Origin: Psammoneis japonica
Lineage: Eukaryota
Assembly: GCA_008632985.1 (NCBI GenBank)
Contig: QPGO01000013.1
Span: forward strand, 186,001-250,000
DNA: 64,000 nt
Direction of reading: 5' to 3'
Position numbers and translations under genes: made by a program. The notes below the pieces were generated by a model. It was not told the origin of the DNA, searched no databases, and was given only the letters and a program-made list of their open reading frames with translations. Shown here in pieces: positions 5,612-55,041 of this stretch; position 1 is the stretch's first letter; every line of letters begins with the position of its first letter.

Positions 5612-6029
5612 TGCATCACGGCGACGTGTTGCAGCCTTTAAATGTCACAAAGGGCGTGACAAAAACAACCTTTTGTCTGCATGCATGCTGCGCTGTGAAT
5701 TCACAGCGGAGTGGTTCATCGCAACCATCAGGCAGGAGGCCAGGGGTTCGAAACCCTGAGTGGGAGTTGTCTGCAGCAACGTTGATCACTGTCGAACGCG
5801 TGAAACTCTGTGCAGTTCTGTGTGTTCCTTCGTGCGTGCCCACACTGTTCCACCAAAACTGTGCAGTGTCAGCACACGTCAGTGAAGAGCCGTGTGGACG
5901 CGTGACACATGGGGAGGAGTGCAACACACAGCCACCAACAAGAGTTGGTGCATCACGGCGACGTGTTGCAGCCTTTAAATGTCACAAAGGGCATGACAAA
6001 AACAACCTTTTGTCTGCATGCATGCTGCA
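5612..6029 (+). mobile_element. Small insertion bounded by 81-bp direct repeats with a tRNA-like (Pol III A/B box) interior; SINE- or TRIM-like
   Basis: Direct repeats at 5612-5692 and 5949-6029 (tgcatcacggcgacgtgttgcagcc...catgctgc). The interior has cagcggagtgg (~5704, A-box-like) and ggttcgaaacc (~5745, B-box). The segment is absent from the paralogous block. Confidence 0.5.
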
Positions 6030-7440
6030 CAGGGGACACCTTTTGTCTGCTGGTGTGCTTGCCACTGCTGGGGAGTGTTGAGAGGACAGAGGCAGTGGTT
6101 GACCCTGTCTTGTTGTCATCCTTGTTGTGTGTCTTGCTCTTGTGCCACTTTCATGATTGGCGCTGACAACACAAGGCTCTTTCTGCACCTTTTTGCAGAA
6201 ATCAAAATGGCAGCAACAGCTGAGGTTGCTGGGGCTCCTCTCATGTGCATGGCTGGGAAACATTTCTTCAGCACACACACGCACATGCGCGCAACAGCAT
6301 CTTGCAGCTGCTGCTTTCCCCAGCCTGGCTCTGCTGTGTGATTGTGCCAGAGCATGCTCTTGATTGAGGTGTGCAGAGGCACAGGAGCAGGCAGTGTGTG
6401 TGTGTGTGGCGGAAACTGCAGAGCACCAGCTTTGCTGGGAATGCTTGCTTCAATCAGCTCTGAGAGGATGCCAGGGGAGTCAGAGAGAGAAGGGAGGGAG
6501 CAAGGTCTCTCTTGCTCCTCCAGCATGCTTGCTGCTCTGTTGTGGTGATGCTGATGATGTGCAGCCAGAGCCGGGGCTGTCATTGGGCTCAAACCTGTCA
6601 GACAATGAAGGCCGTGCATTTGGTTTTGCTTTGACTGCTTTTCTCCAGCACAAAGGAAAGCAGAATGGCGGGCAGTCCCTTGCTGATCTGACAGCTTCCT
6701 CGGAACTGCAGCTCACTGCTGTGGCTCGCATGATGTCGAGTGAATCATCGCACATCGCTCGCAAACAGCCAGAACCCCGCATCACAGGCAGACCGCAGAT
6801 GATGACCACAATTGGATTGTTGGTTCAAATCTGCCAGGGCCTAAATGACAGAGCTTCAAGAGATGACAAGAGTCTTGTGTCTTTTGAGCTCTCGCAATTC
6901 AATTATTGTCATTCATTATTTTGGACATGAGGGTCATTAGCAGGTTATAATTACGACCAAGATAGTCGTAATTGTCAAGACATTATTCATCGAATTATGT
7001 TTTGTATCATAAAGCCAGCTGGCGTCACCCAAGATCAACTTTGTTATTGTTCCTTTTTCTCTGGTTTTAGATGCATGAAAGCACTTATGATAAGAGTCTT
7101 ATGTCGAGATTATTGATATTATGTGAAAAATGGCATTTATGGCACGTTAACATAGAAGAGTCTTATGTCTTTTATTGCTCGTAATTATTGAGTCGGTCAT
7201 TATTTGAGAAAGATTCGATTGCGGTCACAACACACTCTCTAGTAGTAGAGTACGTAGATTCTACGTCTCGTCTTCAGCACTTGAATTTGCTGCCGAACCT
7301 ACGTGTGTGTCGTACATAAAATCGACGTACAGTAAGCCACGTCGTTCCACAGTATCTTTTTACGCAACGCATTGGCTGCTCTTGTGAGGACACAAAAAAG
7401 GCGAGCGTTTTTGAAAAAAGTCATCGTTTTTCAGGTCACC

Positions 7441-12587: not shown

Positions 12588-14498
12588 ATGGTTCTCACGC
12601 AACAGCAACAAACCAAAAGCTTCAAACACATTCTAGGCACTGTGCTCAATCAAGACGATGACAGCCCTCTTCGTTCTGCCCTGTCCATCAATGGGATTGA
12701 ATCGTGTGAGGAATTGTTCAGGTTCTCACCCACCCAAATTGATGCCCTCACTTGCAGAGACGGCGCCAATGCAGTGCCTTTGCCACGGACCCACAGAAAC
12801 CTCCTGGCAGCTTTGATCAGCTTCTACTTTGTCAAAGTTTGCAACGGTGATGATGTGACCAATGAACCCCAGTTGCTCGCACCCGACGAATTTCGCAACT
12901 GCCGCCTTGGTCCGGACTGCTTGACCTCTCTAGCCACTGGCGCAGCACCCTCCGCACCTGTGCCGAGTCCCTTGCCATCCAAACCAGGTGAACCCAGTGC
13001 CATTTTGACACCAGCCTTGCACTGTGCCGCCACTCAGGTGTCCCCCAGAAGTGGTGCCAGTCGCGCCCCGCATGTCTTGACCAACCCGCCTGCAAGCAAC
13101 CTCGGCCCAGTGCAGGATTGCAGCCCTTGCACAGGCCCGCACTTCGAGACCAGTTGGGACACTCCACCCATGGCTTCCAAAGCTGCAGTCTTTGCACCCC
13201 GCAAACCACGTGCTGCCAACCTCCACGTGTCGACTGCTGTCACCCTTCACAGTCTTCGTTTGGGAAGTGATGGAGATGACAACTTGCTTCTCGCATCTCC
13301 TGATGGGGAGCCTCCTTTTCCCGTCATTGAATCTGTTCACAACAGTTCAACCGGTTCATCAGATGGGGAGTTCAGGACATCCAAGCAGCTTCGTTGTCTT
13401 CGGATCCTCCAAGCATCGCACCATGAGACCAGGCCTCCTGACTGGATGCTCCAAGTCTCGCACCTCGAGACTGGGCCTCCTGATTGGATGCCTCAAGTCT
13501 CGCACCTCGAGACCAGGCCTCCTGATTGGATGCCTCAAGTGTCGTGCCTCGAGACTGGGCCTCCTGGTTGGATCCCCCAAGTCTCGTACCTCGAGACTGG
13601 GCCTCCTGATTGGATGCCCCAAGTCTCGTACCTCGAGACCAGGTCTCCTGATTGGATGTCCCAAGTCTCGCACCTCGAGACTGGGCCTCCTGATTGGATG
13701 CCTCAAGTCTCGTGCCTCGAGACTGGGCCTCCTGATTGGATGCCTCAAGTCTCGTGCATCGAGACTGGGCCTCCTGATCAGATGCCCCAAGTCTCGTGCC
13801 TTGAGACCAGGCCTCCCAACTGGACTCTCCACGTCTCGTGCCTCGAGACCGGGCCTCCCAATTGGATCCTCCATGTCTCATGCCTCAGGACTCGGCCTCC
13901 GGATTGGATCCCTCAAGTCTTGCGCCACGAGACTCGGCCTCCTGATTGGATCCCCCAAGTCTCGCACCTCAAGACTTGGCCTCCTGATTGGATCCCCGAA
14001 GACTCGTGTCACAAGACTGGCAAGTCCTTTTGGATCCCAGAAGTCTTGCAGCATGGGACTGGTTGCCCCAATCAGACATCTGCAGCCTTGCACCACAAGA
14101 TGTCTTGCTCCAATCCGATCCCCAAAGGCTTGCACCTTGAGACTCATTTCTCCAATTGGATCAGTCTCTCAGGAGATGCAGTCGGATTGGCAGAACACAA
14201 GACCACCGCTTGTGCCTTTGAACTCATGCTTGCTCTGTTCCCCGAGTCGTGCAAATGCCATGCCGCCTGCAATGTTGCCCCACCGTTCAACATTGTCAAC
14301 CAGACCAAGCTTTGCTCCTTCCATTGCAAGTGCGGATGTGGAATCCCACAAGATCCCAAGTGTGCCTTGAGCTTTGAAAAGCACAACGGCATCTGCAATT
14401 GGGGAGATGCAGCTCATCTCAAGATGACCCACTTGGAGAATGCAACGTTGCTCTCGGATCTTGATCCTTTCTTGTCTCCTCATGTTTTGGTGCTTTGA
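12588..14498 (+). pseudogene. Chimeric gag-like N-terminus / 14-aa repeat / pol remnant ORF of the copia element
   Basis: MVLTQQQQTKSFKHILGTVLNQDDDSPLRSAL resembles CoDi gag N-termini. NQTKLCSFHCKCGCGIPQDPKCALSFEKHNGICNW resembles the YKYGxxVP...NGNxxW segment preceding copia RT, with Tyr->Cys changes. Recognition is from memory, not a search. Confidence 0.65.
13434..14021 (+). repeat. 42-bp tandem repeat (PPDWMPQVS[Y/H/C]LET[G/R]), ~14 copies plus a degenerate tail
   Basis: Unit cctcctgattggatgcctcaagtctcgtgcctcgagactggg seen directly. Confidence 0.95.
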
Positions 14499-15700
14499 CT
14501 CCAAAGTTCTTTGGTCAATCCGAAGTCGAATCTGTTTCTGTGGCTCCTCAAGCAAACTGGGGAGTGACAGGATTTGAACAGGATTCAGGTGCGTGCGAAA
14601 TGTCGCGCGCTGTTTAGTTCACCGCGCACAGTTTTGTGTGCTTTAGTTCCGCGCGTTCGCGCGCGATGTAGTTTGCTTTCGAGCCACAAGGCTCACAAGA
14701 ATGACAACAGCAGCCCGATCACACCGACTCACACGTCTTTCGGCTCCTGTGACGGTCTCTGAGCAGAGACTCATCTGCCATTTAGACAGCAGTGAGGAGT
14801 TGTTGTTTGAATTCTTGCCATTTGCCTTCAATTTCTGTCACTCCTGATTGGATCCCCGAAGACTCGTGTCACAAGACTGGCAAGTCCTTTTGGATCCCAG
14901 AAGTCTTGCAGCATGGGACTGGTTGCCCCAATCAGACATCTGCAGCCTTGCACCACAAGATGTCTTGCTCCAATCTGATCCCCAAAGGCTTGCACCTTGA
15001 GACTCGTTTCTCCAATTGGATCAGTCTCTCAGGAGATGCAGTTGGATTGGTGGAACACAAGACCACCGCTTGTGCCTTTGAACTCATGCTTGCTCTGTTC
15101 CCTGAGTCGTGCAAACGCCATGCCACCTGCAATGTTGCCCCACCGTTCAACATTGTCAACCAGACCAAGCTTTGCTCCTTCCACTGCAAGTGCGGATGTG
15201 GAATCCCACAAGATCCCAAGTGTGCCTTGAGCTTTGAAAAGCACAACGGCATCTGCAATTGGGGAGACGCAGCTCATCTCAAGATGACCCACTTGGAGAA
15301 TGCAACGTTGCTCTCGGATCTTGATCCTTTCTTGTCTCCTCATGTTTTGGTGCTTTGACTCCAAAGTTCTTTGGTCAATCCGAAGTCGAATCTGTTTCTG
15401 TGGCTCCTCAAGCAAACTGGGGAGTGACAGGATTTGAACAGGATTCAGGTGCGTGCGAAATGTCGCGCGCTGTTTAGTTCACCGCGCACAGTTTTGTGTG
15501 CTTTAGTTCCGTGCGTTCGCACGTGATTCAGTTTGCTTTCGAGCCACAAGGCTCACAAGAACAATGACAGCAGCCCGATCATGCCAACTTGCACGTCTTT
15601 TGGCTCCTGCAACGGTCTCTGAGCGGAGACTCATCTGCCATTTAGACAGCAGCAAGGAGCTGTTGTTTGAATTCTTGCCATTTGCCTTCAATTTCTGTCA
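13981..15700 (+). repeat. 860-bp tandem duplication (13981-14840 / 14841-15700), each unit ending in an LTR
   Basis: Both units start ctcctgattggatccccgaagactcgtgtc and end atttctgtca. Confidence 0.95.
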
Positions 15701-17706
15701 GCGATGCTTTTCAGCACAGAGCTTTGGAGGCATTGGAGTGTGCTTTGGGTGACTTGACTGGCACAACTCTGTCAAAATGCTTTTTCAGGTCTTCTCCTTT
15801 AAACTGAAGCAAGTCCTGTCATTCATCCCAGAAGCCCTTCCTCTCTTTTGACTGCTGGCAGGTGCTGCAACAAAAGATGTGCCACCTTTGTCAGTGTGAG
15901 GCAACTTGTTGCACTCCATCAGCAGTTTTCTTGGTGTGCTTGAGTGGGGTGAGCTCTTTTTCCACTTTCAGCACTCATCACATCTGATGGAGCCACAGAA
16001 GCCAAAATGGCTGCAGTGGCTGTGATGAGGAGTCTTGCAGCATGTGCTTCCAGAAGGGCGTGGTGCAAATCACTGGACCACAAGGACACATTGCCACATG
16101 AGCCCAAAATGCAATGGAGCAAATCAAATGCATGGAAACAGCTCACAGAAAAGTCATTCCAACTGCTTTGGTTGAGATCCAAGTCAAGCCATCATGCACA
16201 ATTGACGTGACATTGTTCCAGCATGCCAAACAATGAGGATGAGATGTGAGGCAGACTGGTCATGCCCAGCTGCAAGGGTGCACAAAGAAACAATTTAAGT
16301 GCAACACAGTGGACCACAGCTGTTGCGCAGAAGTCATTCCAGGTGATTTTGTTGAGCTCTGTGCAGAGCTGTTGTGAACAATCATCTCAGCACATTTCAA
16401 CAAGAACAAGGTGCAAGATTGACACTAGATTGATCATGCTCAACTTTCAACTGCAAGTGCGTGCACAAACAAATGATTCAAGCACATGACAACAGCCCAC
16501 AATTGTCAAGCAGAAACCACCCCAGGTGATTTTGTTGAGTCCAAAGTCAAGCTGTCATGCGCCGTCAATGTGAGGTTCCTGCTTCCTGCTCCTGTGCCAC
16601 TGTGCAGTCACAAGGACACTCCCTCAATCCACAACTCAGCCCACATCACTCATGAAGCATCAGCGCTGTGAACAACAGAGTGGCAACACCTTGCTCTAGA
16701 ACATGAGAGATGAAACAAACAACTGCAAGAAACACAAGGATAGACACCACCGCCACAGACCATCAAAAACATGGTGACACTGCACCACAAAAAGCACAAA
16801 CACAAAACTCAACACACTGAATTTTCTCTCACCACAACAACAAAACACACGCACATCAGCCATCATGGGATGGGGATTGTGGGCAGCACCATGGAGCCAA
16901 TTGTCTTTAAAATGAGTGTCACAGAGATGAGCACCATTTTCACCATTGATGGTGTTTGGGCTGTGCTCTTGTGATTGGAAATGCACCAGAAGCCGTGCAG
17001 CATGGTGCAACTGTGATTGATTTTGGGTGGATGAGCTGCCAGCAAAATCTCCAGAAAATGAAAATGAGGTGACATGCATCTGCGGGGTGTGAGACCCCTC
17101 ATGGCTCTTTGAAGCAATGTTTTTTTCAGTGGAAGAATGCATCCATTGATTGCTGGGAAGACACAGCAAGTCAACAAAAAGAACAACAGCAGTGTGGCGC
17201 CAGCACGGGTGTGTTGTTTTTGTGTTTTTTCATGCATGTGATCTTGCTGTGTGAGGCACCATCACATCTGCAGCATCATTTGTTTGAGTTGGGAGTGTTG
17301 CAGATGTGGGTGCAAATTTTTGATGCACAGTGCATGCCAGAGTGCAAGAAAGGTGGCCCAGCCATCTTGTGGCATGACTGGGTTTGTGGTGAGCTTGCCA
17401 ACCTTTTGACAAAAAATCCACCAAGCCCTCTTTGGTGGCTTGCAATGAACCCTTGATTGACCCTGGCAATGACTCAAGGAGCCCAAAAGATGACAATGGC
17501 AAAAAGAGCAACAAACAAGCCACAGTTGCCAAGAACCTCAGGAAGTTGACAGATGGCAACACAGGCAACACATCCCAGTGCATGGTTGGTGGGAAAGGTC
17601 TGCAGATGCCACAATTCAAATTGGCAACAGTGGATGACATGTGTGCCAGCAAGAAAGAGTGGGAGAAGCTCATCTGTCTGGGTCTATCCATCATCTGCAG
17701 AGCAGG
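15701..17706. other. Hypermutated degenerate sequence of unrecognised origin
   Basis: TA and CG depleted; no confidently recognisable protein. Confidence 0.6.
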
Positions 17707-22870: not shown

Positions 22871-25800
22871 CATGCTGACATCTTCTGGAGCCACTTTGTT
22901 TCATCTCACCCCCCATTGAGTGCACAACCTTGAGTCAACAGGCTTGTCATTGTCACATGGTCATTTTTTAGCCACAACAGTGTGTCTGTGCTCCTGCCAG
23001 CTGTGCACCCACTCCAAAGCTTTTGCTGGTGAAAGTTGGCAACATTCCTGCTTCTGCTGTGCACAAGGACAATCAAGCCTGTCTGAAGCATGTGTGACTT
23101 CCCAAGATTTCTCTGCACACCAAACACATTGTCACCCCTGGTGATCTTTCAAAACTTGCATTGAGCCTGATTTTGGAGAACTGAGTCTCAGCTTGTTGCC
23201 AGTCAATTTGCAAAGGTGCTGAGTCTTGTCAAGCTGAAATTGATCAAAAGAGTCCACTTGGCTGGTGAGCTGGTGACTCACTCACACTTGAGAGGGAGAG
23301 TCATCATCATGACATTGTTGCCATTGTCATTGTGCCAGCATCGTCAACTTTGAAAACCAAGATCATTGCTCCAAAAAAGGTCATGTGTGGAGCATGGTTG
23401 CATGCTCAGCAGGAGTGATGAAACAAAGTGGCTTCAGAAGGGCTGTGATTGGAAAGCAATTGTGCTTCAAATGGCCATTTTCAGATCATCTTGATTTTGA
23501 AAATCAACGGTGCTGACCATGCAACAATGACGACAATGATGATGATGACATCTTGGCAATCAGGGATGTGCTCTTTTGCTGCAAACCCCTTCATGCACAG
23601 ATGGAGGCTGTTGGAAAAGACACTCTCCAGAAAAATTCAAAATGCTGGTTGCCAGTTGCCAAAAGCAAGAGAGTGCCCCATGTTGGTGCAGAGACGTGCA
23701 CAACTGGGGGTTGTCTGTGCAAGCATCCTGCACATGAGACCAAGACAGAGCAGAGTGTGATGCTGTGGGAATTGCAGAGCCACAAAAGAAGCCAGAGTGC
23801 CAGCTTGTGTGCCCACATCTACACTTGCTGCTCCAACAACTTTGAGTGCAATGACAAGCTGCAGCAACAATGTGGCAACCCAGCTGCCAATGGTGCCACA
23901 TCTTCATGGAAACCAGGAAACCAGCACAGTCCAGTTTGTTTTCTTTTGTCTCTGCTGGGTCATTCAGAGCACATTGGTCATCCAATGCAATGCCAAGTGC
24001 TGACAACAACAGCAGCAGCAGCCAATGCCATCATGGCAAACACAGTGTGTGCAACTGGGTTCAACACCAAAGAGCACAGTTTGGAAAATTGCCTGGCTTC
24101 ACTTGTTTTGTTGTTGTTTGGACAAGAACAAAGCAAAAAGATGAACAAAAATTCCAGCATGTGAATTGACTGATTTCCTTCCTGCTCTGCTGGTCCAAAC
24201 AAATGAGATGCTGCAAGTCATTGCTGCATGCCCACACCAGTAAATGCCACAGGATGGCCACAACAACACCATGAACAAAGATGGTCAATGTGAAGGACCA
24301 AAGATGTTGACACCTGCGGGTGTCAGAGAGATTCAAAATGGCACCTCAGGAACATGAGTGGGAAGAAATGGTGAAGGTGTCCTGCTGACATTTGTTCTCT
24401 TCTTTCCCCCCCCTGGCTGCTTGCTGTTCAAAAATGATGACTGCTGAAACAAGGTGACAAAAAAGTCCTGTGGCAATCAGCAATGTGCTCAATGCCATGT
24501 GTGGTTCAGTGGGTGATGGGCTTTCATCATGCCTCAACTTTTCTCAAGGACTGCTCAGGGTGTGCTTGCAACCAACAGATCAATCTCTATGTGCTGATGC
24601 TCAAGATTGCAAACACAGGCCAAACCACAAACCCTGACATCCCTTTTTTGCACCCATGGTGAACAAAGTCACATGCAAGCACAAAAAAACATCACTTGCA
24701 ATCTGTCCAAATCAAGGCCTCACTTTTTTCTCTAAAAGAAGAGGGGCAGCTGTCTGCAAAAGCTGCAAAGCACCTTGGGACCCCCCACAATCCAGGGTTC
24801 ATCCTTGCAGTCAAGATGGTTTGCACTCATGAAGTCAAATTTGTGCAAGTGTTCTCAAATGCAATGGCCGCGCTCCCAACTTGTGTGTGGTCATCTTGGG
24901 GGACGTGTCTGGACGGCTGCTGTTGGGACAATCCAGTGCAGGATTTGCACTGGAACAGTCTGTCAATCAGTGTGATTGGGGCATTTGGAAAAACTGTGTG
25001 AATGCTGGACAGATTCTGTGTCTTTTTCATGAGCTTGGGCTTGCTTCTGCTGATGCTTTTCTGCACACATGAAAAACAATGGCAAGAGCAGCCAGTTGCT
25101 GACAGCTTCCTTGGGACTTTTGGTCAGGGGTGGACTGCCTGGTGTGCATGAGGAGTTCATGGGCTGTGTCACAACCTTGGGGCACAATGTGCATGATGAG
25201 TGTTGCAGCAGGGTGGGACTGGGTCATGCAGGTGGGAGAAAAGGCAGGGGTCTGGGAGGTTGGAGATTTGGTGACCATGAGACACAAAACAGAGACTTTT
25301 TGAAGGCGTCATTGTGATGGCGTGGTGGTGTGGTGGGCGAGAAGGCCAAAGCAGGCCATTCATGCATTCTTCCAGGCAGCTGTGCACAGGGCAGCAGAGA
25401 AGACTCCCGAGGGCAAAAGGTTGGCATGGGTGCGTGTGTGTGGTGCAGGCAGCTGGGTGTTGAAACAAAGGACTTGGATGCCCCTGGGGCAGGTGGGGCA
25501 GGGACATGGGGGCAGCTCTGGTTGGCTCCAAAGAGGAGGCAATGGGCAATGCACCCAGGTGCTCCCAAGTGAACATTGGCCAATGGTGCGAGACAGGCAT
25601 CTGCTTGGCTTGCAACAGCTGTGAGAGTTGATCCACGCTGGGTCTCATGACATCTGCTGAACTTCTGCTTGTTGGTGCTCATGTGGTGTGCCTCAGTGAA
25701 AGGGTTGAGATTGGGAGTGGGGGGCAAGCCAGGAGCTGGGAGGGGAGGTTGTTTGGGAATGGCGTTGTCGATGGCTGGGCAGCTGCGACCTGGGCACAGA

Positions 25801-26370
25801 CTTGAGAGGATGGCTTGATGTGGCTGCACCAGCACACCAAATGCACATGACAAGCTCAACAACAGATTGATGGAATGTTCTTGAGTCAGCCCAAAAAATT
25901 TGCAGAGCCATGCCAAACAAAAATGATGGTCAGTGGCACAACAGGAACAACCTGCTGCTGCGTCACTTGAGAGGCTGTTCTTGATGCGCAGGGCACACTC
26001 AGAGAGTTGAAGGAGCTTGACCCAGATTTGGCTTGAAATGGCCAGATGATGATGTTTCAAATTGAAGCACATTGGGGATCACAGGTCAACTCCTTGATGC
26101 ACAAACAGGTGCCAGCTGTGAGAACAGATGTGTTTTGAATCTCGGCGGTGCAGCCGATGACAACCCAAAAATGTGTCGCAAATGATGTCGACAAAATGAC
26201 CTTGACACCTTGACTCTCTTTGCACCTCTGGAGGAGACAGGGGTGCTCTGAGGGAACATTCTGGCAGTGCTGGTGATGACAATGGCGACGCCATGGTGGA
26301 GGCAGTTTGCGCGGGAAAATTTGCGCAAAAAACTCCACACTTGGCGCTGCGGCGGAACCACATGTCACTG
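22871..26370. other. Hypermutated degenerate sequence, origin unrecognised (possibly old TE remnants)
   Basis: TA and CG depleted; Cys/His/Gln-rich spurious ORFs. Confidence 0.6.
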
Positions 26371-27084: not shown

Positions 27085-29171
27085 ATGAGCGAAGAGAAGG
27101 AAAACGGGGTTCAGCTTGCTCCCGACGATGATGCCAGGGAGGAACCGGGTGCGACTATTGTCGAGGAGGGAATTCCTCCTGCAGACTCGGGCAAGAGCAC
27201 CAGCATCCGCAACCGCCTCTCGGCTGTTTCGCGAAAGTACGACATTGACGGCGATGGCAAGCTCGACGAGACGGAACAGGCCATGCGTGACATGGATATT
27301 GAGAACAAGGGCTTTTTGAGCAACGAAATGGTGTACAAGCTCATGCGCGAGCAGATGCAAACCCAAAAGGATCTGTGAGTTGTTGTGTGTATCCGATAAG
27401 AGTTGAATGGAAAGGCATCAGTCATATGATCGACTAACTCTTCTGTTGTTTCCTTTTTTGACAGCCTAAACGCTAAGCGTCTCGTCCTCTTTTTTGGAGG
27501 CTTTGCTCTTCTTCTCGCCGTCGCCACCATCGGAACGTCCTTTGCCGCCGCCAAATTGGCTCAAGAAACTACGACGAGCAACAACGTCCTTGTCGTCAAG
27601 GGCACGGACGAGGTTGTAGCGACCGGTCATCAAGGCAAACTCTATCATATCGTCACTATGGAGGATTCTTCGAGACGCCAGCTTGCCAACTTTACGGTGG
27701 TAGCTACGATTCCGGAGGATGACCTAGATCGCATGAAACAGCAGTGCGATGCCTCCGAATCCGTCAACATCATTCGTACATGGGATGGATACGACGCGGA
27801 AGAAGCAATTCCGGTCTGCCCGGGCAATGGTCATGGCAAAAGCCAGGGCGTCTACAAATTCCATTTGTACAATGGAAGGACGCTGGAGGTGGATTGCCGA
27901 GGACCCGGTGATTGCGACGTGGGCGGCACCGGATTTCTGCTTTCGGTAGGTGATTTCTGTACGCAAGACGCAGATTGCTTGTTCAACACCTGCTCGGGCA
28001 CACCAGGAACATGTTTTTGTCCTCGTCCTCCCGCCGATACCAGCTCATGTAGCAGTGGTCTTCTAGCTTCTTGCATCTACGGCAACTCCGCGTGCGACTA
28101 CGACAATAGCTGCATCGCCAACCTTGCCGCGGCGGATGCTGGCATCGCGTGGGACCATTGCGTTGAAGTGATGTTCGGCAGGCCCTTTGTCGACGGGGAG
28201 GGCGCACATCTCCAGGCGACTGTCGTCGACACCAACAGCACATCTACGAGTTGGTCAACCTCGTCCTACTCTGACAGTCATCAGTTGAGCGAGACGCTCG
28301 CCATCACTAATCGTGAACAAGATGCCTGCCGTCACTCTCTCGGACAAGAGTGGACAGGCCGTGCACTCGGAGAACATGCCTCAGTCGCTTCGTTCGCCGC
28401 CTTCACCCTGGCTCTCATGTCCAACAACGCTCCTCCCGATCTCGTTCGCGATTCCTTGATCGCCGGACTAGACGAAGTCCGGCATGCGGAAACCTCCTTT
28501 GCGGTCGCATCCTCCTTGATGGGACAAAGCGTGGAGCCGGGACCGTTGCCTCCCTCGACTCTTGATTTGGTAACGACCTGACGGCCATGGCAATCGCCAC
28601 CGCTCGTGAAGGATGCGTCGATGAAACGCTCTCGGCCTTGGATTTGGCCGCCGAGGCAAACGAGTACGAAGATGGCAAGGACGATTTCGTTTCGGAATTG
28701 AATCTCAAGGACAAGACCACCACCATTGCCCTAGAGGAAGCAACTCATTCGGCTCTGGCATGGCGCACAATCCGTTGGGTATGTCGCGTGGATCCGAGTG
28801 CGTGCTCAGCCGTTCAAAAGGAGGTCCTAGAACCAAGCAAGCTGAAAGCGGCGTACGAGAGGCGCTTTCCAAGTTCTGCCTCACTCAATTTTGAGAACGA
28901 GTGGACCGAGATTTACGAGGCTTTGTTGCCCTTGCTGGAAAACGAGGCCCAGAACCATTGCAACACCAAGATCAAAGGCGTCGAACCGCAAGACCTGGTT
29001 TCGATGGTGGTCAACAAGATCATCACGGGCGTCATGTGCCCGAACAACGACAGCGAGCAGCTTCCGACTCCGGTAAATCATGCTCCAGTCCACCAGCAGA
29101 ACGCTTTGGAGTGTGAAGCGGAGGCTGCGGTTGAACGTTTCGTTGGAGCGTTGGTGTCGGCTCATTCGTAA
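27085..29171 (+). CDS. EF-hand + transmembrane + Cys-rich + ferritin-like domain protein (one frameshift near 28566)
   Basis: YDIDGDGKLDETE EF-hand-like loop; intron 27375-27464 (GTGAGT..ctaac..ACAG); hydrophobic helix; EHASVASF, DEVRHA, EGCVDET and EEATHSALAW di-iron-type ExxH motifs. The frame changes at ~28566. Confidence 0.75.
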
Positions 29172-29329
29172 AAGGACAGAACGTGGGTGTGGCGGCAGAA
29201 TCAATCAAGCCAAAACAGAAAAGGGGTTTGCCGCATTCTATCACACATGTTTTGACAGTGCGAGTTGTAGTTTAGTTCCTTAAAGAAAAATAGTTTCTTT
29301 GGGTGGAAGTAGGTTTGTCTAAAATGTCT

Positions 29330-31480
29330 AGCCACTCCTCCTCAGTCTTGTGGCCGGCACCAACCTGTCCACACAGGCAGCTACGGTGGAGCTCTGGCTC
29401 TGCAAAACTCTCTGCCTGTGGGGGTGACTGCCCATGCTGTCAACACACCCCACCAACATATGAAAATGGATGTCAGCACTGAGTCCCCTTGCTTGCACTG
29501 TTGTGCTGATGACCCACTCAGTTGTCCAGTGCTCCATGGACACCAGGTCATCCTCAGGGTGGCCTGGTCCATGAGTTCCCACATGGTGGCTGCAACTGGC
29601 AACACATGTGTCCTCAAGATGGCGCTGCAGACACCATGTTGTGCCATTGGCATTCACAGGCAGTGTGGCTGCATCCCAGGACAATTTCTCACAGCATTGA
29701 AATGTTGGCCATGATGGGAGTTGCAAACTGCGGCATTTTGTCTCTCGCACTGTCTTGCCTCCATGATGAGGTCTTCAGTGCAGGCATCAAGGTCGGCACA
29801 TGATGCTGTGATGATGTGATGCACACTGCTGGGTGGTTGGTCATTGGAGCTCACAACACAAAGTTGTGAGTGCAACACACGCCACCAAGTGAGTGCCACA
29901 ACAAGTTGAGTGTGGTGGCTGCCCCTGTCCATTGTCAAGAGGAGCATCAAGCACCACTGTGTTGGCCAGCATTGCACAGCTCTTCTCTTCTTCATGGATC
30001 TGCTGGCACAGTGCATCATTGTGGGCAATCTTCTGGGTGGTTTCATCCAGCACTGTGAGCTCAAGCAAGAGTGGGTTGATTCCTTGAGCAATGCCATCAT
30101 GCTTGTCACCAGCGTGTGGGTGTTGCCAGACTGCGCACTTGCATTTCCAGCAAAACTGGTGCACAGACTCAGAAGCCTGCTCCTGTGGCTCAGTGCATTT
30201 CATCTGCAAGAGCATGTTCTTGATCATGCCCAGATGTGTTGGTTGGTGTCTTGACCAATTCCAAGGCCCTTTGACAATGCCAGGACATCAAAGCACCTCC
30301 ATTGTGCCACTTGGCTGTCATGCCATCCTGAACTGCTTTTGCCATGGGAGATGGACTTGGCATGGATCAGCTGCAGTGGGGTCACAAATTGATTCAGTTG
30401 GAGATCCAGCCCCTCACCTTGTGGCAACTGTGCTGGAGGGAAGTGTCAGGGGAAGAGGGAATGGGCACATTGAGCCACTTGCAGGGGCGGTGGCAGATGC
30501 ACCCAGATCTGAGGCTGCAGCCATGCAGGCTGCCCTCTTGACAAGCAACTCCACAGGGGCGGACATGCAGTGAGTTGGTTGGCTGCAGCAACAGTGCTGT
30601 GAACACAGGTGAGCACCTGGTTGTTGGGTGTGAGCAGTGCCAAGCAACAAAAGCAGCTGCAAGCGCTGCCTTTGGCTGCTTGCAGCTGCTGGGGAGTGCA
30701 AGGACAGAGGCAGTGGTTGACCCCATCTTGTTGTTGCCCTGGCTGTGCATCTTGCTGCTGCTGCTGCGCTGCTCTCATGATTTGTGCTGGCCATGCAAGG
30801 CTCTTTCTGTGATTTTTTGCAGAAACCAGCCATGATGACGGCGATGACTGAGGTTGCTGGCGGGGCTCTGCTCACAATGTGCATGAGGCGCACATTTCTT
30901 TTCACACATGCACACACACATGCACAACAGTGTGCCACAGCTGCCACTCTCTCCAGCCTGGCTCTGCTGTGTCATTGTGCCAGAGCATGCTCTTGATTGA
31001 AGAGGTGCACAAAGGCAGGTGTGTGTGGTTGAAACTGCGCACACACATCAGCAGCAGTTTCGCTGGGAGTGCTCATTTTAATCAACTGCAAGGTCACCAG
31101 GGAAGTCTCAGAGGGGGGAGAGAACAAACTCTCTCTTGCTCCTCTAGCATGCTGCTGCTCTGTTTTGCTCACAGAGAGAAGATGATGCCACCACAACGCA
31201 CCAGCACCACGGCAATGATGATGCATTCACAGCTGGAGCTCCCTCTCATTGGGCTCAAACCTGTCAGATGTCAAAGATTGTGAGCTTGGTTTTGCTTCGA
31301 CTGCTTTTCTCCAGCATAAAAATGGAATGGCAGGTGGTCGCTGGCTGCGATCTGACAGCTTCCTCGGGACTGCAGCTCTCTGTCACTTGCATTTTGTCGA
31401 ATGGATCATGATGTCACATGCCAATGTCCCCAGCTAGCAGCGAACAGCCAGAACCGCATGCATCACAGGCAGACCGCAGA
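29330..31480. other. Hypermutated block paralogous to ~4090-6800
   Basis: Collinear similarity; both copies are TA and CG depleted. Confidence 0.85.
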
Positions 31481-47163: not shown

Positions 47164-49458
47164 TCACAATATTTCCGCGCTACTACTCAACATTTCGAGC
47201 GTTTCTGATCCAACTGTGTCTGTTTCACTATACGTTTTGCGACTTCGGAGGGCCCTCAACGTGCAAAACAGCAAAACGTTGCAGACAATACAAACAGAGA
47301 GAAGTGATACGGTCACAAGAAACCATGTTTGTTGAACAAATCTTGAATCCGACGTTGCTTGGATACAGTAGTGCACGTACGGAGGTAGCTCTCCCAACCG
47401 TCGGCAGTCCACTACATCAGCAAGGGCTCCGTTGAAAGCATCTGCCACGGCCTGAGGTCCGTCACGTACAGGTTTCCCATCTGGTGATACAACCATGTTC
47501 CGTTCAATGACGCTGGCAGCATCTCGATCGTATGCAGCTACGATGGGAAGGACCGAAAGTGCAAAAGTTTCTCCTGTTGCCAAGCCATCATTTGGTGCAT
47601 CGCCATTGTTTTCTTGAATCACGCTAGCAAATTTTAGCGTACTCTGTATAAGAGGCACAAGGAGTAGGTTCTGGAGTTTCTCAACCGTCCACTCCAAGCG
47701 ATCACAGGCAAGCGCTTCAAGCTCTCCTTTACCAGCAAAGAGAAGGTTTTCCAGCTCTGAATTCACTTTGGCGTATCCCCTAGAATTGACCGTGTTGAAC
47801 TCAAAGGCCCTCTTATTGGCTAGATTCCAAAACAGGACACCGTCGCCCGAGTTCGATGACGATCCCTCGAGAGAGCCAATCAAATATGCTGCAGCGGCAT
47901 CCCACAAGTGTTCGTTCACCTTGCCATCGTTGCAGTCTTGTACGACAGTTGCCATTTCTGTCAGTGCGTACAGGTACAAAATATGAAATGCGCATGTCTT
48001 CACCACAACTTCGGTCCGTCTGAGTGTCGATCCAAACTCGTCCTCGCTGCCCCACTTGCCCGTTCCACTCAAGGTATTCATGACTAAATTATCGGCGTAC
48101 CGGGGATCGTCGTGATACTCTGTAAAATACGAATAAAAGGGCTCCGCTAGCTGACGACTCGGTAAAGTGGCCAGCTCATGCAAGGACTTGACCGTGTACG
48201 AGTCATTCTGGTGAGTCCGCTTCATGAAAGCGTTCCGGCCGAATCTGTACAAGAGCTTGGCAAAGTCGAACGATTCATTGGATGTCAAAATACCAAGTTG
48301 GTAAACATCCAAGTCGATCCTAGTTTGTGCCTTTACTCGTGTTGTGGCTGTATAGTCGGCGAGTGGAAAACTTGGCGAGGCATGCCTGTCATTATTGCAC
48401 TGCCACATGTCATCAGCCAGGTAGATCCCGACTTCTTGACAAGCGATCCCCAAGCAGTCAAGCGCAAGTGTCAAGTCATCCAAAATCTCTGGAAGGTTCC
48501 CAAAGTTAAAGTCTCGTTCCAACAACTCGTCTTTTAGCCTTTGAAACAATGACGGACGACATTGCGATACCTGCGGAACAACAGCAAGAGCATATATTGC
48601 TGCTTGCTCTGAATTGCGTTCAATCAGTGAACGAATCAGCATTTGGACGAGTGGTATTGTCATTTGCGTCACCATTCGTTGTACCACATTCCATAGTTCT
48701 GGTACAGAGTTCTGATTGCGCTTTAGACAGGCGTGATTCGCCGCCAGTATGCCACTGCCTTCCTTGTACAAGAGCCTGAGCTGTGCATTCACTCGCGCTT
48801 CTGGGTTACTCTTTCCAAACATTGCCCCGGCCTCTTGAGTCAAAGTGTACAATGTATGCTCGTGAATCATACCAGAGGGTTGATTTGGACCCATCCACAG
48901 CGCCATAAACTCATCCATACCGCCTCCGCCAAGTTCAATCACGTCGGGTAAATCGGCTACACTTTTTTTCTGACACTTGTCAACTCCCTGATAGAGCAAG
49001 TGTGTTGCATACATCCATTCAATCAATACAAGAATGGCAGGAGATACAATTCGACGACGATTAGATTTGCTAATGCTGGATTGAACAAATGAATCTCCGT
49101 AGAGTGCAACATTATGAAAGCCAAGGTCCGACAGTCCCTGCAATTGATAAATATAATTCGGAGTCTTGGTTCCCTTGAGCTCGACACTGAGTGACCGGAG
49201 ACTCCGTTGGGGTGGAGCGGCTTCTGAATACAATAACTTTGCGGTAACACTATCACCGCTCTGCATCAATTCGTGAACGTTTGCCACGTTCAGGGCAAGG
49301 TTGGCCCATTCTTGAACATTGGTTCTTGTTTCAATGCCACCGCCCAACAACGTTGTTGTTGCCGCAGCAGCAAACGTGCAGAACGACAAGGCGAGAACAA
49401 GTAGTCTCTGCTGCGCTTTTGTCATTATCACAAAACAGATATCTTTTTTTACAGGCAA
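47164..49458 (-). CDS. FEA1 / low-iron-inducible periplasmic protein-like, two tandem domains with C-terminal membrane anchor
   Basis: Signal peptide; repeated DEFMALWMG / WDAAAAYLIGSLEG and MTIPLVQ / LLVPLIQ motifs recalled from this family; C-terminal hydrophobic helix. Confidence 0.7.
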   Translation of the reverse strand: MPVKKDICFVIMTKAQQRLLVLALSFCTFAAAATTTLLGGGIETRTNVQEWANLALNVANVHELMQSGDSVTAKLLYSEAAPPQRSLRSLSVELKGTKTPNYIYQLQGLSDLGFHNVALYGDSFVQSSISKSNRRRIVSPAILVLIEWMYATHLLYQGVDKCQKKSVADLPDVIELGGGGMDEFMALWMGPNQPSGMIHEHTLYTLTQEAGAMFGKSNPEARVNAQLRLLYKEGSGILAANHACLKRNQNSVPELWNVVQRMVTQMTIPLVQMLIRSLIERNSEQAAIYALAVVPQVSQCRPSLFQRLKDELLERDFNFGNLPEILDDLTLALDCLGIACQEVGIYLADDMWQCNNDRHASPSFPLADYTATTRVKAQTRIDLDVYQLGILTSNESFDFAKLLYRFGRNAFMKRTHQNDSYTVKSLHELATLPSRQLAEPFYSYFTEYHDDPRYADNLVMNTLSGTGKWGSEDEFGSTLRRTEVVVKTCAFHILYLYALTEMATVVQDCNDGKVNEHLWDAAAAYLIGSLEGSSSNSGDGVLFWNLANKRAFEFNTVNSRGYAKVNSELENLLFAGKGELEALACDRLEWTVEKLQNLLLVPLIQSTLKFASVIQENNGDAPNDGLATGETFALSVLPIVAAYDRDAASVIERNMVVSPDGKPVRDGPQAVADAFNGALADVVDCRRLGELPPYVHYCIQATSDSRFVQQTWFLVTVSLLSVCIVCNVLLFCTLRALRSRKTYSETDTVGSETLEMLSSSAEIL

Positions 49459-49807
49459 TGCGATACAGCTCCAATGGTATGATTAGGCTTTCATCAAAGT
49501 GCTTCTGGTTGTTGTTGTAAACGATGTGTTGTTGTTACAAAATTGAGAAGGAAAAATGAAAAATGAATCGTGCGAGATCTCTGACCAAGCGATAAAAACG
49601 ACAAAAACTGAGCATTACGGAATATTATCCAGCCAAACCAACTCCCGGACAAGACATTTTTTTTTTTCCGATGCGAATTTGGATGTCACCCAACGAGAAT
49701 TCTGAAGAACAGAACGATGATTTTTGCGAGTTTCAGCGATCGACAGCGATTTCTTCACGTAGACTCTAGTGTGATTTGCACATAAAAAAACACATAAGTG
49801 ATTCAAC

Positions 49808-51402
49808 ATGAGCGACAACATCTCGAGCAAGGTTGAGGAAGACTTAGAGTCTCCAGATGACTCTTCTTTGATCGACTCAGCTTCATTTGAGTCAGAGGAA
49901 GCTGACGAAGCGTCCTGGGAGGAAACGGGCAGTAATCCCATAGTTGACGGCGACGTTTCTGCTGTCAAAGAATCTTCTGGCGATGATGAGAACGTCATGC
50001 CTTTGCCGAGGATGATTCCAAGGCCCCCCAAGAGGCCTGCTGATGGTCAAGACGACCGCAGTCCATCCAACAAGCGTTCGAAGCAATCAGGGGGGTCGAA
50101 ACCTCGCAACCCCCTTGCGGAAAGGAGCTTCAACAAGATCCAGTGGAAGCTCGAGCGCGCTGAAGCGGCGCTCGTCGCTCAGCAGGAAGAAGCTGACGCC
50201 AACGACCACGCCGCTGCCAAGGCAGCCAGAGCCAGCGAACAAAAGCTCTCCAAGGTTGTGGAGCAGCTGGAAGGAAAGAAGGAGATCATTGCAAACACCA
50301 AGAAAGAAGTTGCACAGCTGAAGAAGGAGGTGGCAGCTTCGAAGAGGAAAGTCACCGCTCTGGAGCGGAGCTTGGCTGCTTCTGAGCTTAAAGCAGCAAG
50401 CGTGGATGCCAAGTTTCAGGCTTTGAAGTCTGTCAAGACGGATGCACAGCGGAGTTTGAGCCAGCTCAGGAAGGATCTGTTGTCAGAAGAGAAAAAGAGT
50501 GCCAAGCTGACTGAAAAAGGAGAGGAATGCCGCCGTGCCATCGCTCAGAGAGATGCGGAGATGTCTGAGTGTAAAGCCAAGGTGAGGTCGCTTCAAGCTT
50601 TGGAGCATGAGAACAGTCGTGTGAAGCTGCAGTTGGTGGCGGATCGAACCGAGAAAAGGGAACATGAGCGAGCAATGGCTCAATTTAAGTTGGAAGGGAT
50701 GAAGCATGCGTCCATCAAGCGGCAGGAGGAAATGAAGATGAAGCTGGAGAAAGAAGCCGTCGTGCTTAAAGGAAAAAATTTTCTCCTGGAAAACAAGTCG
50801 AGACTCAAGCAAGAGGACAAAGAGAGAGCAAAAGGAAGGACAAGGAGCGCAAGGACAGGCTAGAATCTGCAAACGCTAGAATCGCCATTGCCAGTGGAAT
50901 GAGTGGTCTGGGTTTTGCCAACCAAGGCATTTTGCAGTCGGCAAGTGTGCGCAAGTGTCCTGAAATGTCTCATTTGTTTGCATTGATCTGATGCTTTCAT
51001 TGTTGGTCATGCCAGGCACTCCTTGATCGCCAGTGGCAACAGCTGAACGAGGTTCCGCCGGGAGCATCTTTCGGCGCTCCGACTTTTCAGAATGCAGCGG
51101 CACCTGCTCAGGCTGCTGCTGGACCTCCTGCGCCTGCTCAGGCTGCTGCCAGACCTCCTGCGCCTGCTCAGGCTGCTGCTGGACCTCCTTTGCTTCTTCC
51201 TGATGGCTGGAAGGAAGCCAAGGATCCAGCAACAGGGAAAAGCTGTTGCTTCAACCAGTTGTTGGGGAAGACAATGTGGGATCATCCGTTGCCGCCGCCG
51301 CCGCCGCCTCCTCCGCCGCCGCCGTCGCCTCCGCAGGTTCCTCCTCCCCCACCCCCTCCAGATCCTTCTCTCAACTCAAAGGCAACCTCCAAAAAAGGGT
51401 GA
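49808..51402 (+). pseudogene. Transposon accessory gene: acidic N-terminus, long coiled coil, Ala/Pro repeat, WW domain, polyproline
   Basis: ORF 49808-50863 continues after a 1-nt frameshift (~50830) and a putative intron 50941-51015 (GCAAGT..GCCAG) into LPDGWKEAKDPATGKSCCFNQLLGKTMWDHP, a WW domain with YY->CC. Confidence 0.7.
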
Positions 51403-51730
51403 CTCACTTTCAACAGCGATTTGGTGCGAAATGCATTCTGTCATCGGCCGCATTGCTTCTGGGAATGCCGTTGGTGACACACAATTTTAGGAATCCATTG
51501 TGCATGACTGCTTTGTCACACTGCAACATCACAATTGTGACACATCCAGACAGTGCTGCAGCATTTGCATTTGCTCTATCTCCAGTGCTGTTGCAATGAC
51601 TCTAGCGTGTGTTCACCGAAAATTGTCGTTCGAAGCATTAGATCCATTGTCGTTTCCTTGTTCACGACTCGTTCTTGACAATGCAATTGCAACATGCCCA
51701 GACAGCAGTGCCATTGTAACTGCATTTGCT

Positions 51731-52870
51731 CTAGTGGCCAGTGCCATTGCAATTACTGTCTACCTGGCATCCACAGAAAATCATCGTTTGAAGCATGAGA
51801 TCCACCGTCATTTCATCAAGAATCTGCCGAACGAAGCACATGATGGCATCCTGATGTGGACGTGGCAAAACAAGGCCAAAGCCTTTCAAACGCTGGACCA
51901 ATGTTCGGAACATGAGCTCAATGGGGTTTAACTCTGGTGAGCATCTTGGAAGACACACCACCAACACATTCATGGGATTTCCGTCGGGACCCACCGTGTT
52001 CCACAGCAAATCTTGAAGTGTGTCGGCATCCCCGGCCTTGTGGATGGTGCAATTGTCCAAGATTAATGTGTCAAAGCGATTGAACCATCCAGATGCCAAC
52101 AACTGCTCCACAAATGCAACAAACGCCGCGCTCGTCCCATTGTCCTCCCCGACTGTGTGCGTGATGGGAGCTTTTGTTGCATCAACCCCCACGCACGCGA
52201 GAAGATTGCAACTCTTCCAAAAGTCCCCGTCAACCACGACATTGTCACATGTTCCACTGACAGGGTTAACACGGGCCTTCCTTGAGAAAAAATCTCCCCC
52301 TTCAAGATGCTTTTCGTCGGCAAACTTGAATCACAAGGGATTGAGTTGCGACACGAACTGCACGAAGTCACAGCAGTGCGCAATGTTTTCTGGTCTGAAT
52401 TTGTCAAGTGGAACATTGCTGGTTGCTTTGAATTTTCCTTTGAAGGCAAACCTTGAAGCAAACCATTCTGAGATGAATGATGGAGACACAATGGTGCCTG
52501 TGGCTGCGAACAGCTCTCGTACATGGCTCTCGTTCGTTCTTGTTGAATCTACGAAACGAAGCCAAAGAAGAAAGCTTTCCTCCTCTGGTGTCAAACAAAT
52601 GCTTCCAACACCTTGACACCGCTGTTGTCGACTTCTCAATTCATTAGGGTGCATCACCATGCCCTTGATGTCTGCTTCATTCTTGATTTTGTCGGCAAAA
52701 TCCCAGCCAACCTTGCAAGCTCTTGCAAGCGCAGCGGTGTCGGGGACTTCTCCAAGCGTCGTTTTTAGCTCTTCATACACCCTTGCAACCTCTAACTTCT
52801 TTAGGTATGGGCATGACTTTCCGGGAGCATAGATTCCACCATTGGAATTGATTTCAAACCTTTCAGTCAT
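51731..52870 (-). pseudogene. DDE transposase (IS630/Tc1-like) with one in-frame TGA
   Basis: FADEKH, LILDNCTIH and CLPRCSPELNPIELMF; ORFs 52331-52975 and 51731-52237 are in the same frame, separated by TGA at 52331-52333. Confidence 0.9.
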
Positions 52871-53716
52871 GCTGACAATCCTCGGAAAACTCGGTTTCAG
52901 CACCGCTCTTGAAAACTGCCTCCCGCTTTTCACACGCTCCACCTTGTCGAGCAGGACTTCAAAATCAAATAGCATGTTAAAAGAAGCACTCTTTAGAGTA
53001 TATGTCTTGGCCGAAACATCGGTGGGATGGTTGTTGTCTCACCGTACGCTTGCCGGCCATGGTGCAAAGAAAACTTTGACAGGCGAGCCCGTGCATGATT
53101 TGCTCCTCTGACGCTTCTTCGAAAAAAAGCAGCGCGTGCATCCAACGAGAAGCCGTGACTCGCATCCAAGATTATTTGACCCCACGTAGAATTGTACGCG
53201 TCCGGGAGTTGGTTTGGCTGGATAATAATCAGCATTGTATACATCTTCGAGGATAAAATGTATAATTCTCGAATACAAACATTTGATTGCTCGCCATTTT
53301 TCAAAATTCATTCGGTATTTTTCTCGACTTGGGTGTTGACAAAGCTAAACAACCTTGTTGTGTAGATAAACAAATGTCATAACATGTCATCAATAAAAAG
53401 AAGGATTTCATGAATGAGAGGTTCAAAGTGCTAATGTAAGAAGCACTAAGTATTTTCACCACAAGTAGTGTAGAAGTACTAACTCGTCAGGAATAGAAGA
53501 GCAAGTAGATTGAAGGTTGCTTTATCCCGCCCTCGGTATTTAATCCTACAGAAGAGAGCTGTAGACAGAGTGAACGAGACATGATACTAGTGCACGATGC
53601 GCTAGCTTGATGCAGTAGCTGGTAACAAGTTCAGAAAGCGAAGGAGTACCTCAACATCAAAACTAGGATCAAAACGAACAACTAATGTGATTTGTATAAC
53701 TTTAGTTTATTCATGT

Positions 53717-54277
53717 TTATCCCACCTTCACAAAACGGCGCTTGGCGGCTTGCTTCTTGGTGATCTTAACACGCTCTTCCTCCTCGTCTTCCGCCTTTTC
53801 AACACCCTCGGGCTTTTCCGTAAGAATGAGTTCAATGTGAGCGGGTTGACTGGCATACTTTCCAATACGTCCGTGCGCTCTGTATGTACGACGACGTCCA
53901 GCGGGAGCACGATTCACCTGCGCATGGCTAATTACGAGAAGATCGGGATCAAGCCCCTTGGTCTCTCCGTTGGCAATGGCATTCGAGAGCAAATCCTTGT
54001 ACACAGCCATGGCCTTGACGGGCCACCTACCCTTGGAACCGGGCGTTTTCGATTGCTTGGCTTGTGCCTTGCGTCCGACACCACCGGTAAACTTGACAAA
54101 GGGAACGACAGACTTGAAGGCGAGAACGTCGTCGCAAAACTTGAGCGCCTTGTTCACGTTCATCCCCTTGGTGTGATGGGCGATTTCACGGCAGTGCTTA
54201 AAGTGAACCCGGAGGTGAGAGCCACGAGACTTGCTCGTCTTCTCGGCAGCATCTGGCTCGACACTGTAACGGACCAT
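53717..54277 (-). CDS. RPL17: 60S ribosomal protein L17 (uL22)
   Basis: SRGSHLRVHFKH, GRWPVKA and RRRTYRAHGRI. Confidence 0.97.
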   Translation of the reverse strand: MVRYSVEPDAAEKTSKSRGSHLRVHFKHCREIAHHTKGMNVNKALKFCDDVLAFKSVVPFVKFTGGVGRKAQAKQSKTPGSKGRWPVKAMAVYKDLLSNAIANGETKGLDPDLLVISHAQVNRAPAGRRRTYRAHGRIGKYASQPAHIELILTEKPEGVEKAEDEEEERVKITKKQAAKRRFVKVG

Positions 54278-55041
54278 TGTGAAATAGAGCTGTGGTGTGT
54301 GCAAGAAAAGGCAGAGTAGTGAGTAAGAGTATCGGTATTTTTATTCGTCATGAGATCAACGCCGCCGAGAAAGAAATTTTCAGGTCCGTCCGTCAGCTCA
54401 AACGACGACACGACACTTTTTTGCATCATGATGAACGCAACCAGCATTGCATCGAACTTAAGCTACTCTTCGTTGTTGCTTTGTTGTAATTATCATATAT
54501 CCTTCCATCCGCAACTGCAAAGCAAAAAAAGTCCGCCGTCGTCAAACGATTCCCATGGTCTCACCTGCTTTTTCCTGAAATGGAAAATGTGCGGCAGCAA
54601 GGAGTACCACGGAAAGTCAACGCACGTAGAAAACTCGTACGTTTCTACGGTGAAAATCATAAGTAAGTGGTAGCTCGACAGGACCGTGCCGTCTGCCCAT
54701 CGTGCTTCGTCTGTCAGTCGAAAAGTCAACCAACAGAATTCGACTCACTCGACTCTTCATGAGAGAATGCGCAAACCTGTTCGTTTTCAAAAAATGTCCG
54801 TTGAGCTTCGTACTATCGTCCAATTTGACACGCGTGGCTATAATTGAGAACCCCACTTTTCAAAAAACATAATCTTGACCTGACAACATGAAGTATTCAG
54901 AGCCGAATGAAAGTCATTGATCGGCCGTTAATCTGAAAGTCGTTGTCACACATGAAAGCACCTCGATCTCACATCATCATCATTTTTCGCTGAAAAAGTA
55001 CCAGTACATAATTTAGAAGGAGAGAATATATTGATTGCACC

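Follow-up and report, generated by a model that had tools for sequence, protein, structure and literature searches.

IS630/Tc1/mariner (ITm) transposases are standard one-protein transposition systems, and an ITm transposon that also encloses a second, intron-containing gene raises the question of what such a gene is for. The element considered here lies at positions 49625–53225 of a stretch of 64,000 nucleotides from Psammoneis japonica (hereafter the window; assembly GCA_008632985.1, contig QPGO01000013.1, positions 186,001 to 250,000 of the forward strand). Its two-gene layout, its Mos1-like transposase, its insertion at TA, its linked second gene under selection and its post-insertion inactivation, mostly through TpA→TpG/CpA and CpG→TpG/CpA changes, are very well supported by the observations reported below. 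According to the complete reading, on which we are evenly divided, the element is a degraded copy of a two-gene, autonomous DNA transposon belonging to an IS630-like (ITm) clade of eukaryotes, in which the second gene (hereafter the accessory gene) encodes a nuclear adaptor.

The element is bounded by terminal inverted repeats (TIRs) of 26 bp (49625–49650 on the + strand and 53200–53225 on the − strand), identical at 26 of 26 bases and flanked by a TA on each side (49623–49624 and 53226–53227), as the original prediction had it. Two other copies define, with this one, a family A. The first, on contig C2, is full-length, 94% identical to the window copy and surrounded by unrelated flanks, which fixes the element ends (it reads CA in place of the right TA), while the second, on contig C362, is limited to the left 2.2 kb and carries two nested insertions. 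Homology with both copies begins at the left TA. The TA duplication is deduced from copies with unrelated flanks, as no empty site was seen: in a DNA read set (possibly from the source sample) spanning both element junctions, the empty-site joint was not found, and the 4-base form of the other copies is present. Within the 3.6 kb of the element, one gene runs inward from each TIR, and the two converge on a spacer located 3′ of both (51403–51730). The insertions nested in the C362 copy, at its left end, are themselves TIR-bounded and non-autonomous (449 and 1113 bases; L044:6234-6682 and 6768-7880).

The transposase pseudogene occupies positions 51731–52975 of the − strand (with a start at 52975 or 52870) and matches Pfam DDE_3 (E 4e-12). 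Its catalytic residues are D at 52316–52318, D at 52055–52057 and E at 51917–51919, which leaves the E separated from the second D by 45 residues (DD45E) and agrees with the count made by hand in the original prediction. In the C2 copy, the frame is open for 435 codons, and an AlphaFold2 model of the protein (predicted local distance difference test score 88) has Mos1, Sleeping Beauty and Metnase as its top Foldseek matches. As in Mos1, the build combines two helix-turn-helix (HTH) units with an RNase H-type DDE domain, and the transposase possesses a complete N-terminal helical DNA-binding part of its own. The best structural match is Mos1 (5hoo, E 1.6e-8) and the best PDB sequence match is Sleeping Beauty (E 1.6e-4). 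With its RNase H-fold DDE transposase, N-terminal helical part, TIRs and TA, the element is a member of the ITm group. It shares short TIRs and the TA duplication with Tc1/mariner elements (Mos1, Sleeping Beauty, Tc1), but these are DD34E/D elements with a single open reading frame (ORF), and their transposases are only 12–16% identical to the one studied here. The DD34E/Tc1 type in particular does not apply to an element with a spacer of 45 rather than 34 and two genes in 3.6 kb, Tc1 itself having a single ORF in ~1.3 kb (PMC7325037, accessible text).

To place the transposase among its relatives, a Hidden Markov Model (HMM) search yielded 243 cluster representatives at E≤1e-30, one cluster containing an MMETSP transcript. 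Among the 75 of 153 proteins for which the spacer could be parsed, it amounts to 38 residues in 38 proteins, 44 in 18, 45 in seven, 46 in five, 47 in two and 49 in one, with other values in four. In a quickly computed, midpoint-rooted tree with 55 rows, but without an outgroup or reference ITm clades, families A and B (the latter introduced below) and the metagenome loci L047–L050 fall within a DD44-46E group of 19 rows, which includes one DD38E member (Shimodaira–Hasegawa-like approximate likelihood ratio support: 93), while five long-loop proteins branch outside of it. Since proteins with long loops are scattered over more than one part of the tree and DD38E is the commonest state, DD45E is a loop variant. 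The original prediction had taken DD45E as the signature of a distinct family, a use that we reject: only seven of the 75 parsed relatives share it, against 38 with DD38E. Consequently, naming the group after its DDxE spacing is misleading, as values of 38 and 44–49 occur within one clade. The accessible parts of the literature likewise acknowledge identical spacer signatures in unrelated groups (PMC8533490) and hold unusual spacers to be unreliable for classification (PMC8533490, PMC11544213). DD38E/Intruder, which the accessible text of PMC7731502 presents as an animal group, recent and sibling to DD34E/Tc1, has a spacer equal to the commonest state of our clade, though the window element itself is DD45E and the comparison is with the published description. 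In its combination of spacer and third catalytic residue, the element does not agree with DD82E/Sailor (DD78-111E), PlantMar (DD39D) or pogo (DDxD); PlantMar is the type given for the diatom rows visible in the PMC7325037 supplements. No mention of a DD45E transposon was found in the literature searched.

At the domain level, Pfam DDE_3 is found in 64 of 68 clade members, with a triad that is invariant or nearly so, while HTH_Tnp_Tc3_2 is found in two. The NCBIfam model NF033545 (IS630) matches 67 of the 68 at E≤0.01. This match and the TA target bring the clade close to bacterial IS630, from which it nevertheless differs: the C2 protein scores 51.1 bits against a cut-off of 100, the best plasmid IS630 is 27% identical over half the length, and the second gene bears an intron. 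The genes flanking the element are eukaryotic and exclude a bacterial host. Moreover, a search of 185,579 prokaryotic genomes returned a single weak match, and none of 49 pattern matches in a viral collection was confirmed; by these scans, the clade is neither prokaryotic nor viral.

The accessory gene lies on the + strand. Its first exon (49808–50940, frameshifted in the window copy) encodes an acidic N-terminus, a basic Pro/Lys/Arg motif and a coiled coil of ~260 residues, which AlphaFold2 models as two long helices; in the C2 copy, it is open for 379 codons and 39% identical to exon 1 of family B. DNA comparison then predicts a phase-0 intron of 75 bp (50941–51015), whose donor reads GCAAGT in the window and C2 copies and GTGAGT in the C362 copy, with GTGAGT also at the same codon and phase in family B. 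The donor variants are the two products that erosion of a single TA would leave, and with the GT at the family B codon they make good internal evidence for the predicted intron. The second exon (51016–51402, stop codon at 51400–51402) comprises three 30-bp Ala/Pro repeats (51100–51189), a WW domain (51196–51288; Pfam PF00397, E 2e-4 in the window copy and 3e-6 in the C2 copy) and a polyproline tract (51286–51366). The convergent gene outlined in the original prediction thus stands, with its intron as a predicted feature. Relative to the gathering cut-off of the WW profile (26.9 bits), the C2 copy scores 27.5, the window copy 21.6, family B 23.5 and the metagenome loci L049 and L050 ~16. In all five copies of families A and B, the central aromatic positions of the domain are occupied by Cys or His, the codons expected from TpA erosion of Tyr. 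Neither Pfam nor the ESM Atlas revealed a catalytic or DNA-binding domain in the accessory protein; no ESM Atlas match reached 0.9, the recognition value being low and no family assigned, and the Pfam scans gave no sign of a membrane segment, a toxin domain or a second product. The basic motif and the exon-junction peptides are conserved between families A and B, and we take the basic clusters to resemble nuclear signals.

To decide whether the second gene is a regular component of such elements, we searched the 91.4-Mb assembly with the transposase (25 protein matches) and examined the surroundings of 15 places beyond the three family A copies. All 12 full-length TIR-bounded relatives, distributed over four families (A: two, B: two, C: two, D: six), contain a second-gene region. 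Family B (C32, C97; 3.6 kb) has a transposase ~65% identical over the catalytic part, related TIRs and the same two-exon accessory gene, with WW domain and polyproline but devoid of the Ala/Pro repeats. Family C (C217, C183; ~4 kb) and family D (3.9–4.6 kb) are both DD38E and combine a coiled-coil exon with a Gln/Pro-rich exon in the former and an Arg/Ser-rich (RS-rich) exon in the latter. Five other contigs (C10, C30, C110, C73, C12) showed no matching end pair or a different small element; among the latter is a 2.4-kb ITm-like element with other TIRs and several copies on C12 (L077:1427-3863). Two local features were also recorded in these families: the acceptor region of the family B intron is duplicated over 138 bases, which gives two possible acceptors (L045:4003-4182), and an abundant short repeat with dozens of genome matches at 74–84% separates the family C genes (L067, element bases 1351–1640).

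Beyond this genome, 20 metagenome loci were returned, 18 of which could be checked downstream (two stop inside the transposase), 11 with at least 1000 bases. A convergent ORF of at least 100 residues is present in 10 of these 11, L059 being the exception. Both TIRs were seen in four of the 12 loci scanned (L048, L049, L052, L063), each time enclosing the second gene, which therefore cannot be a neighbouring host gene there. The ends begin with TA|TTAT in families A–D, L048, L049 and L052, while a phase-0 GT intron directly follows the coiled coil in six of seven lineages (A, B, C, D, L048–L050 and L063). Tails vary by lineage (WW-Pro, RS-rich or Gln-rich), kinds that we presume to match those of nuclear transcription and splicing proteins. 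Transposases of the lineages carrying a second gene are 30–60% identical. The original prediction had envisaged a distinct family with a cargo or accessory protein, while allowing that the second ORF might be confined to this one copy. Its presence in all five copies of A and B, in two more families from this genome and in distant metagenome elements bears out the former view, whereas the Ala/Pro repeats (family A only) and the WW domain do not define the gene. In the metagenome set, we further observed an L051-type accessory-like ORF upstream of the transposase and on the same strand (L056:1046-1840), perhaps from a neighbouring or rearranged element, and, in three DD38E loci (L052:1684-1750, L053:1522-1570 and the contig end of L059), convergent ORFs ending in a Leu-x-x-Leu-Ala-x-Ala-Ala-like helix located 8–18 codons before the stop, which strikes us as reminiscent of co-repressor-binding motifs.

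The second gene is under purifying selection. For the unmutated pair L048–L049, the ratio of nonsynonymous to synonymous differences (pN/pS) is 0.39 for exon 1 (bootstrap 0.31–0.50), 0.37 for exon 2 (0.25–0.52) and 0.25 for the transposase; between families A and B, both hypermutated and near saturation at synonymous sites, it is 0.65 (0.56–0.75), 0.45 and 0.36, respectively, all values deriving from protein-guided alignments that bias pN/pS downward by lowering pN. The accessory gene changes fast between lineages, while the transposase is conserved. Exon 1 of the L048 type has 36 relatives at 47–98% identity among 8000 candidates scored.

The window copy is dead, both of its genes being broken. 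Its transposase is interrupted by a premature TGA at 52331–52333, where the C2 codon is CGA, and in its accessory gene 4 bp that C2 and C362 retain are deleted after 50818, with an early stop at 50861–50863, while the splice donor is eroded to GC. The window and C2 copies differ in 175 of 3601 aligned columns, including 128 in the TA/TG/CA/CG classes and 18 transversions. TpA observed/expected is as low as 0.13 in the element core, and tyrosine makes up three of 391 residues, against a median of 4.1% among 57 relatives. Family C gives the direction of the change, i.e., a loss of TA: C217 has 148 TA steps, of which 116 are CA or TG in C183 and 20 are kept, while in reverse only five of the 29 TA steps of C183 are CA or TG in C217. 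C217 (L067:3652-7680), which has 40 TA per kb and whose frames are open, is apparently unmutated and a candidate intact family C element, which makes the pair it forms with its heavily eroded sister C183 (L086) a natural before/after comparison. In total, 10 of the 11 copies measured are TpA-eroded. TA steps are better preserved near the element ends (49625–49900 and 52900–53225 in the window) than inside, and likewise in family B, while in family D they are lost at element ends beside eroded flanks. The transposase reading frame of the window copy also continues for 11 codons beyond the end of its relatives, at a CAG codon (51764–51766), the product to be expected had a stop codon undergone TpA erosion. 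In the accessible text of a preprint on Bigelowiella natans, T/A→C/G transitions confined to TpA are reported in foreign (integrated viral) DNA, and TpA-poor genes are enriched in DDE endonuclease domains (bioRxiv 10.64898/2026.01.13.699255). The signature is the same, but was measured there on viral DNA in a chlorarachniophyte, whereas here the TpA loss is deduced from transposon copies and is accompanied by CpG loss.

What, then, might the accessory protein do? Its linkage to the transposase, the shared layout and intron, the selection acting on it, the lack of an enzyme or DNA-binding domain and the two-helix model are the grounds on which we suppose, with slightly less than even confidence, a nuclear, non-enzymatic adaptor to the host transcription, RNA-processing or chromatin machinery. 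By known ITm chemistry, the transposase alone would bind the TIRs, cut, and paste at TA. The long coiled coil of the accessory protein would oligomerise, its basic clusters would import it into the nucleus, and its exchangeable disordered tail (WW and polyproline, RS-rich or Gln/Pro-rich) would bind host transcription, RNA-processing or chromatin proteins. It could thereby, in the face of host silencing, maintain the expression of the element or its position in open chromatin, to the benefit of the element and not of the host. The fast change of the protein between lineages would fit such a host-facing role, and the host-interaction or anti-silencing function suggested in the original prediction is likewise conjectural. 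Several observations nonetheless weigh against this reading, to which the alignment bias in pN/pS has to be added. Pairwise shuffles, hhalign and HMM all failed to detect homology between coiled coils from different lineages: only the pairs A–B, M–M and D–D score, plus a weak D–L063, while A/B against M yields hhalign probabilities of 0.2–0.4% and HMM scores within those of shuffled or reversed controls, so that the shared layout could stem from repeated capture. L051 and L058 lack the intron; L052 and L057 have neither intron nor coiled coil, only a short acidic, Pro-rich ORF split over two frames; in L059, the 1653 bases downstream contain no ORF reaching 70 residues. Lineages A, B and M, all with long loops, are the only ones with a WW or WW-like domain, which C, D and L063 lack. 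In L061 (1557–2609) and L066 (853–1200), a related transposase is followed by a convergent ORF of a different type (351 residues, globular-looking), the element ends not being seen. Finally, a shield against the mutator would fail often, given that 10 of 11 copies are eroded.

In a more specific version, which we consider improbable, the accessory protein would act clade-wide as a counter-defence, its coiled-coil scaffold with an exchangeable WW/RS/Gln tail blocking or delaying the host pathway of silencing and TpA/CpG rewriting. Were it true, the binding partners of the protein would identify the TpA mutator pathway. Alternatively, the accessory protein might be a direct transposition cofactor that binds the transposase or bridges both element ends, host contact being secondary. 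MURB of MuDR, ORF2 of Harbinger and TnpA of Spm are models for such cofactors, the convergent layout recalls mudrA/mudrB of MuDR, and both the near-constant linkage and the selection on the two exons are in line with it, as is a long coiled coil able to bridge ends or regulate the multimer state. However, no DNA-binding domain was found in the accessory protein, while the transposase has a complete one and matches full-length Mos1, a one-protein system; furthermore, the transposase is conserved across lineages and the accessory sequence is not. We thus hold the cofactor to be rather unlikely. Second non-catalytic proteins are also known from VANDAL, in which VANC is an anti-silencing factor, yet MuDR (with its convergent genes), Harbinger and VANDAL belong to other superfamilies with other target duplications, and no connection with the accessory protein was found in sequence or domains.

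In another alternative, favoured by the lack of detectable homology between lineages, host genes or fragments of them would have been captured repeatedly and independently as second genes (Pack-type cargo) and kept for host benefit or by chance, the common layout being a convergence on a free slot behind the second TIR. The different tails and the one different ORF type (L061) go in the same direction, as do the host-like spliceosomal intron and WW domain, WW domains of the host being numerous in the genome (33 matches). Yet the A-type coiled coil occurs in the genome only inside the five A/B copies, with no host paralogue elsewhere and no relative among the 8000 candidates, which led us to reject a recent capture with a surviving host paralogue. 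Moreover, six lineages share the structural position and the phase of the intron, purifying selection acts between element subfamilies, and the basic motif and exon-junction peptides are conserved between A and B; repeated capture therefore seems to us an improbable explanation as well. Still less probable, and indeed very much so, is a factor of selfish transmission, whether a toxin-antidote or a bias of segregation at mitotic or sexual division, that would spread the element without touching transposition. A long coiled coil, a disordered tail, fast evolution and the lack of an enzyme domain would be compatible with it, but no second product, membrane segment or toxin domain was seen, and all the A and B copies examined are mutated and give no hint of having been protected.

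Elements from ciliates are among the closest published systems. According to the accessible text of these sources, TBE and Tec are multi-ORF IS630/Tc1 elements, with selection reported on the TBE ORFs (PMC7325037), and so are Sardine, Thon and Anchois, the last being 3.6 kb long with ~22-nt TIRs and two hypothetical ORFs (PMC3464196). The statement of the original prediction that Tc1 is normally single-gene consequently applies to Tc1 proper but not to IS630/Tc1 elements at large. The element studied here shares with the ciliate ones an IS630/Tc1-type DDE transposase and extra ORFs inside the TIRs under selection. As described there, however, those have three or four ORFs, DD34E/DD35E or shorter spacers and zinc-finger or tyrosine-recombinase partners, whereas we find one convergent two-exon coiled-coil gene with no such Pfam domain, DD38E or DD44-49E, and an algal host.

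L31 elements with a second ORF and a diatom DD43D mariner are also known. No description of the clade was found in the literature searched, which covered few subscription papers and neither Repbase nor Dfam; this two-gene ITm variant with a selected accessory gene is apparently undescribed. A broad algal clade keeping a second, selected and non-enzymatic gene implies that some ITm elements need or gain from a helper, beyond the case of ciliates. Such a helper role is directly testable, with C217 beside its mutated sister C183 and with the unmutated metagenome pairs. Should the accessory protein counter host silencing, it would also give a handle on the TpA-erasing process that disabled most copies.

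As for the surroundings of the element, it is flanked on the left by a Fea1/ISIP2a-like (iron-starvation) host gene (47164–49425, − strand; Pfam Fea1, E 9e-9) and on the right by a gene for ribosomal protein L22p/L17e (53717–54340, − strand; Pfam, E 3e-25). The Fea1/ISIP2a-like neighbour by itself would point to a diatom host. The start codon of the former is 199 bases from the element end (49425–49624), the element being upstream. Other copies lie 160–340 bases upstream of ATG ORFs, a spacing that we do not use as an argument for promoter targeting, in the absence of a null expectation for a compact genome. Further away in the window, four blocks (1–7000, 13001–17000, 23001–26000 and 29001–31000) combine a TpA observed/expected of ~0–0.1 with low CpG. 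They are far more eroded than the element and are probably older transposon DNA exposed to the same process.

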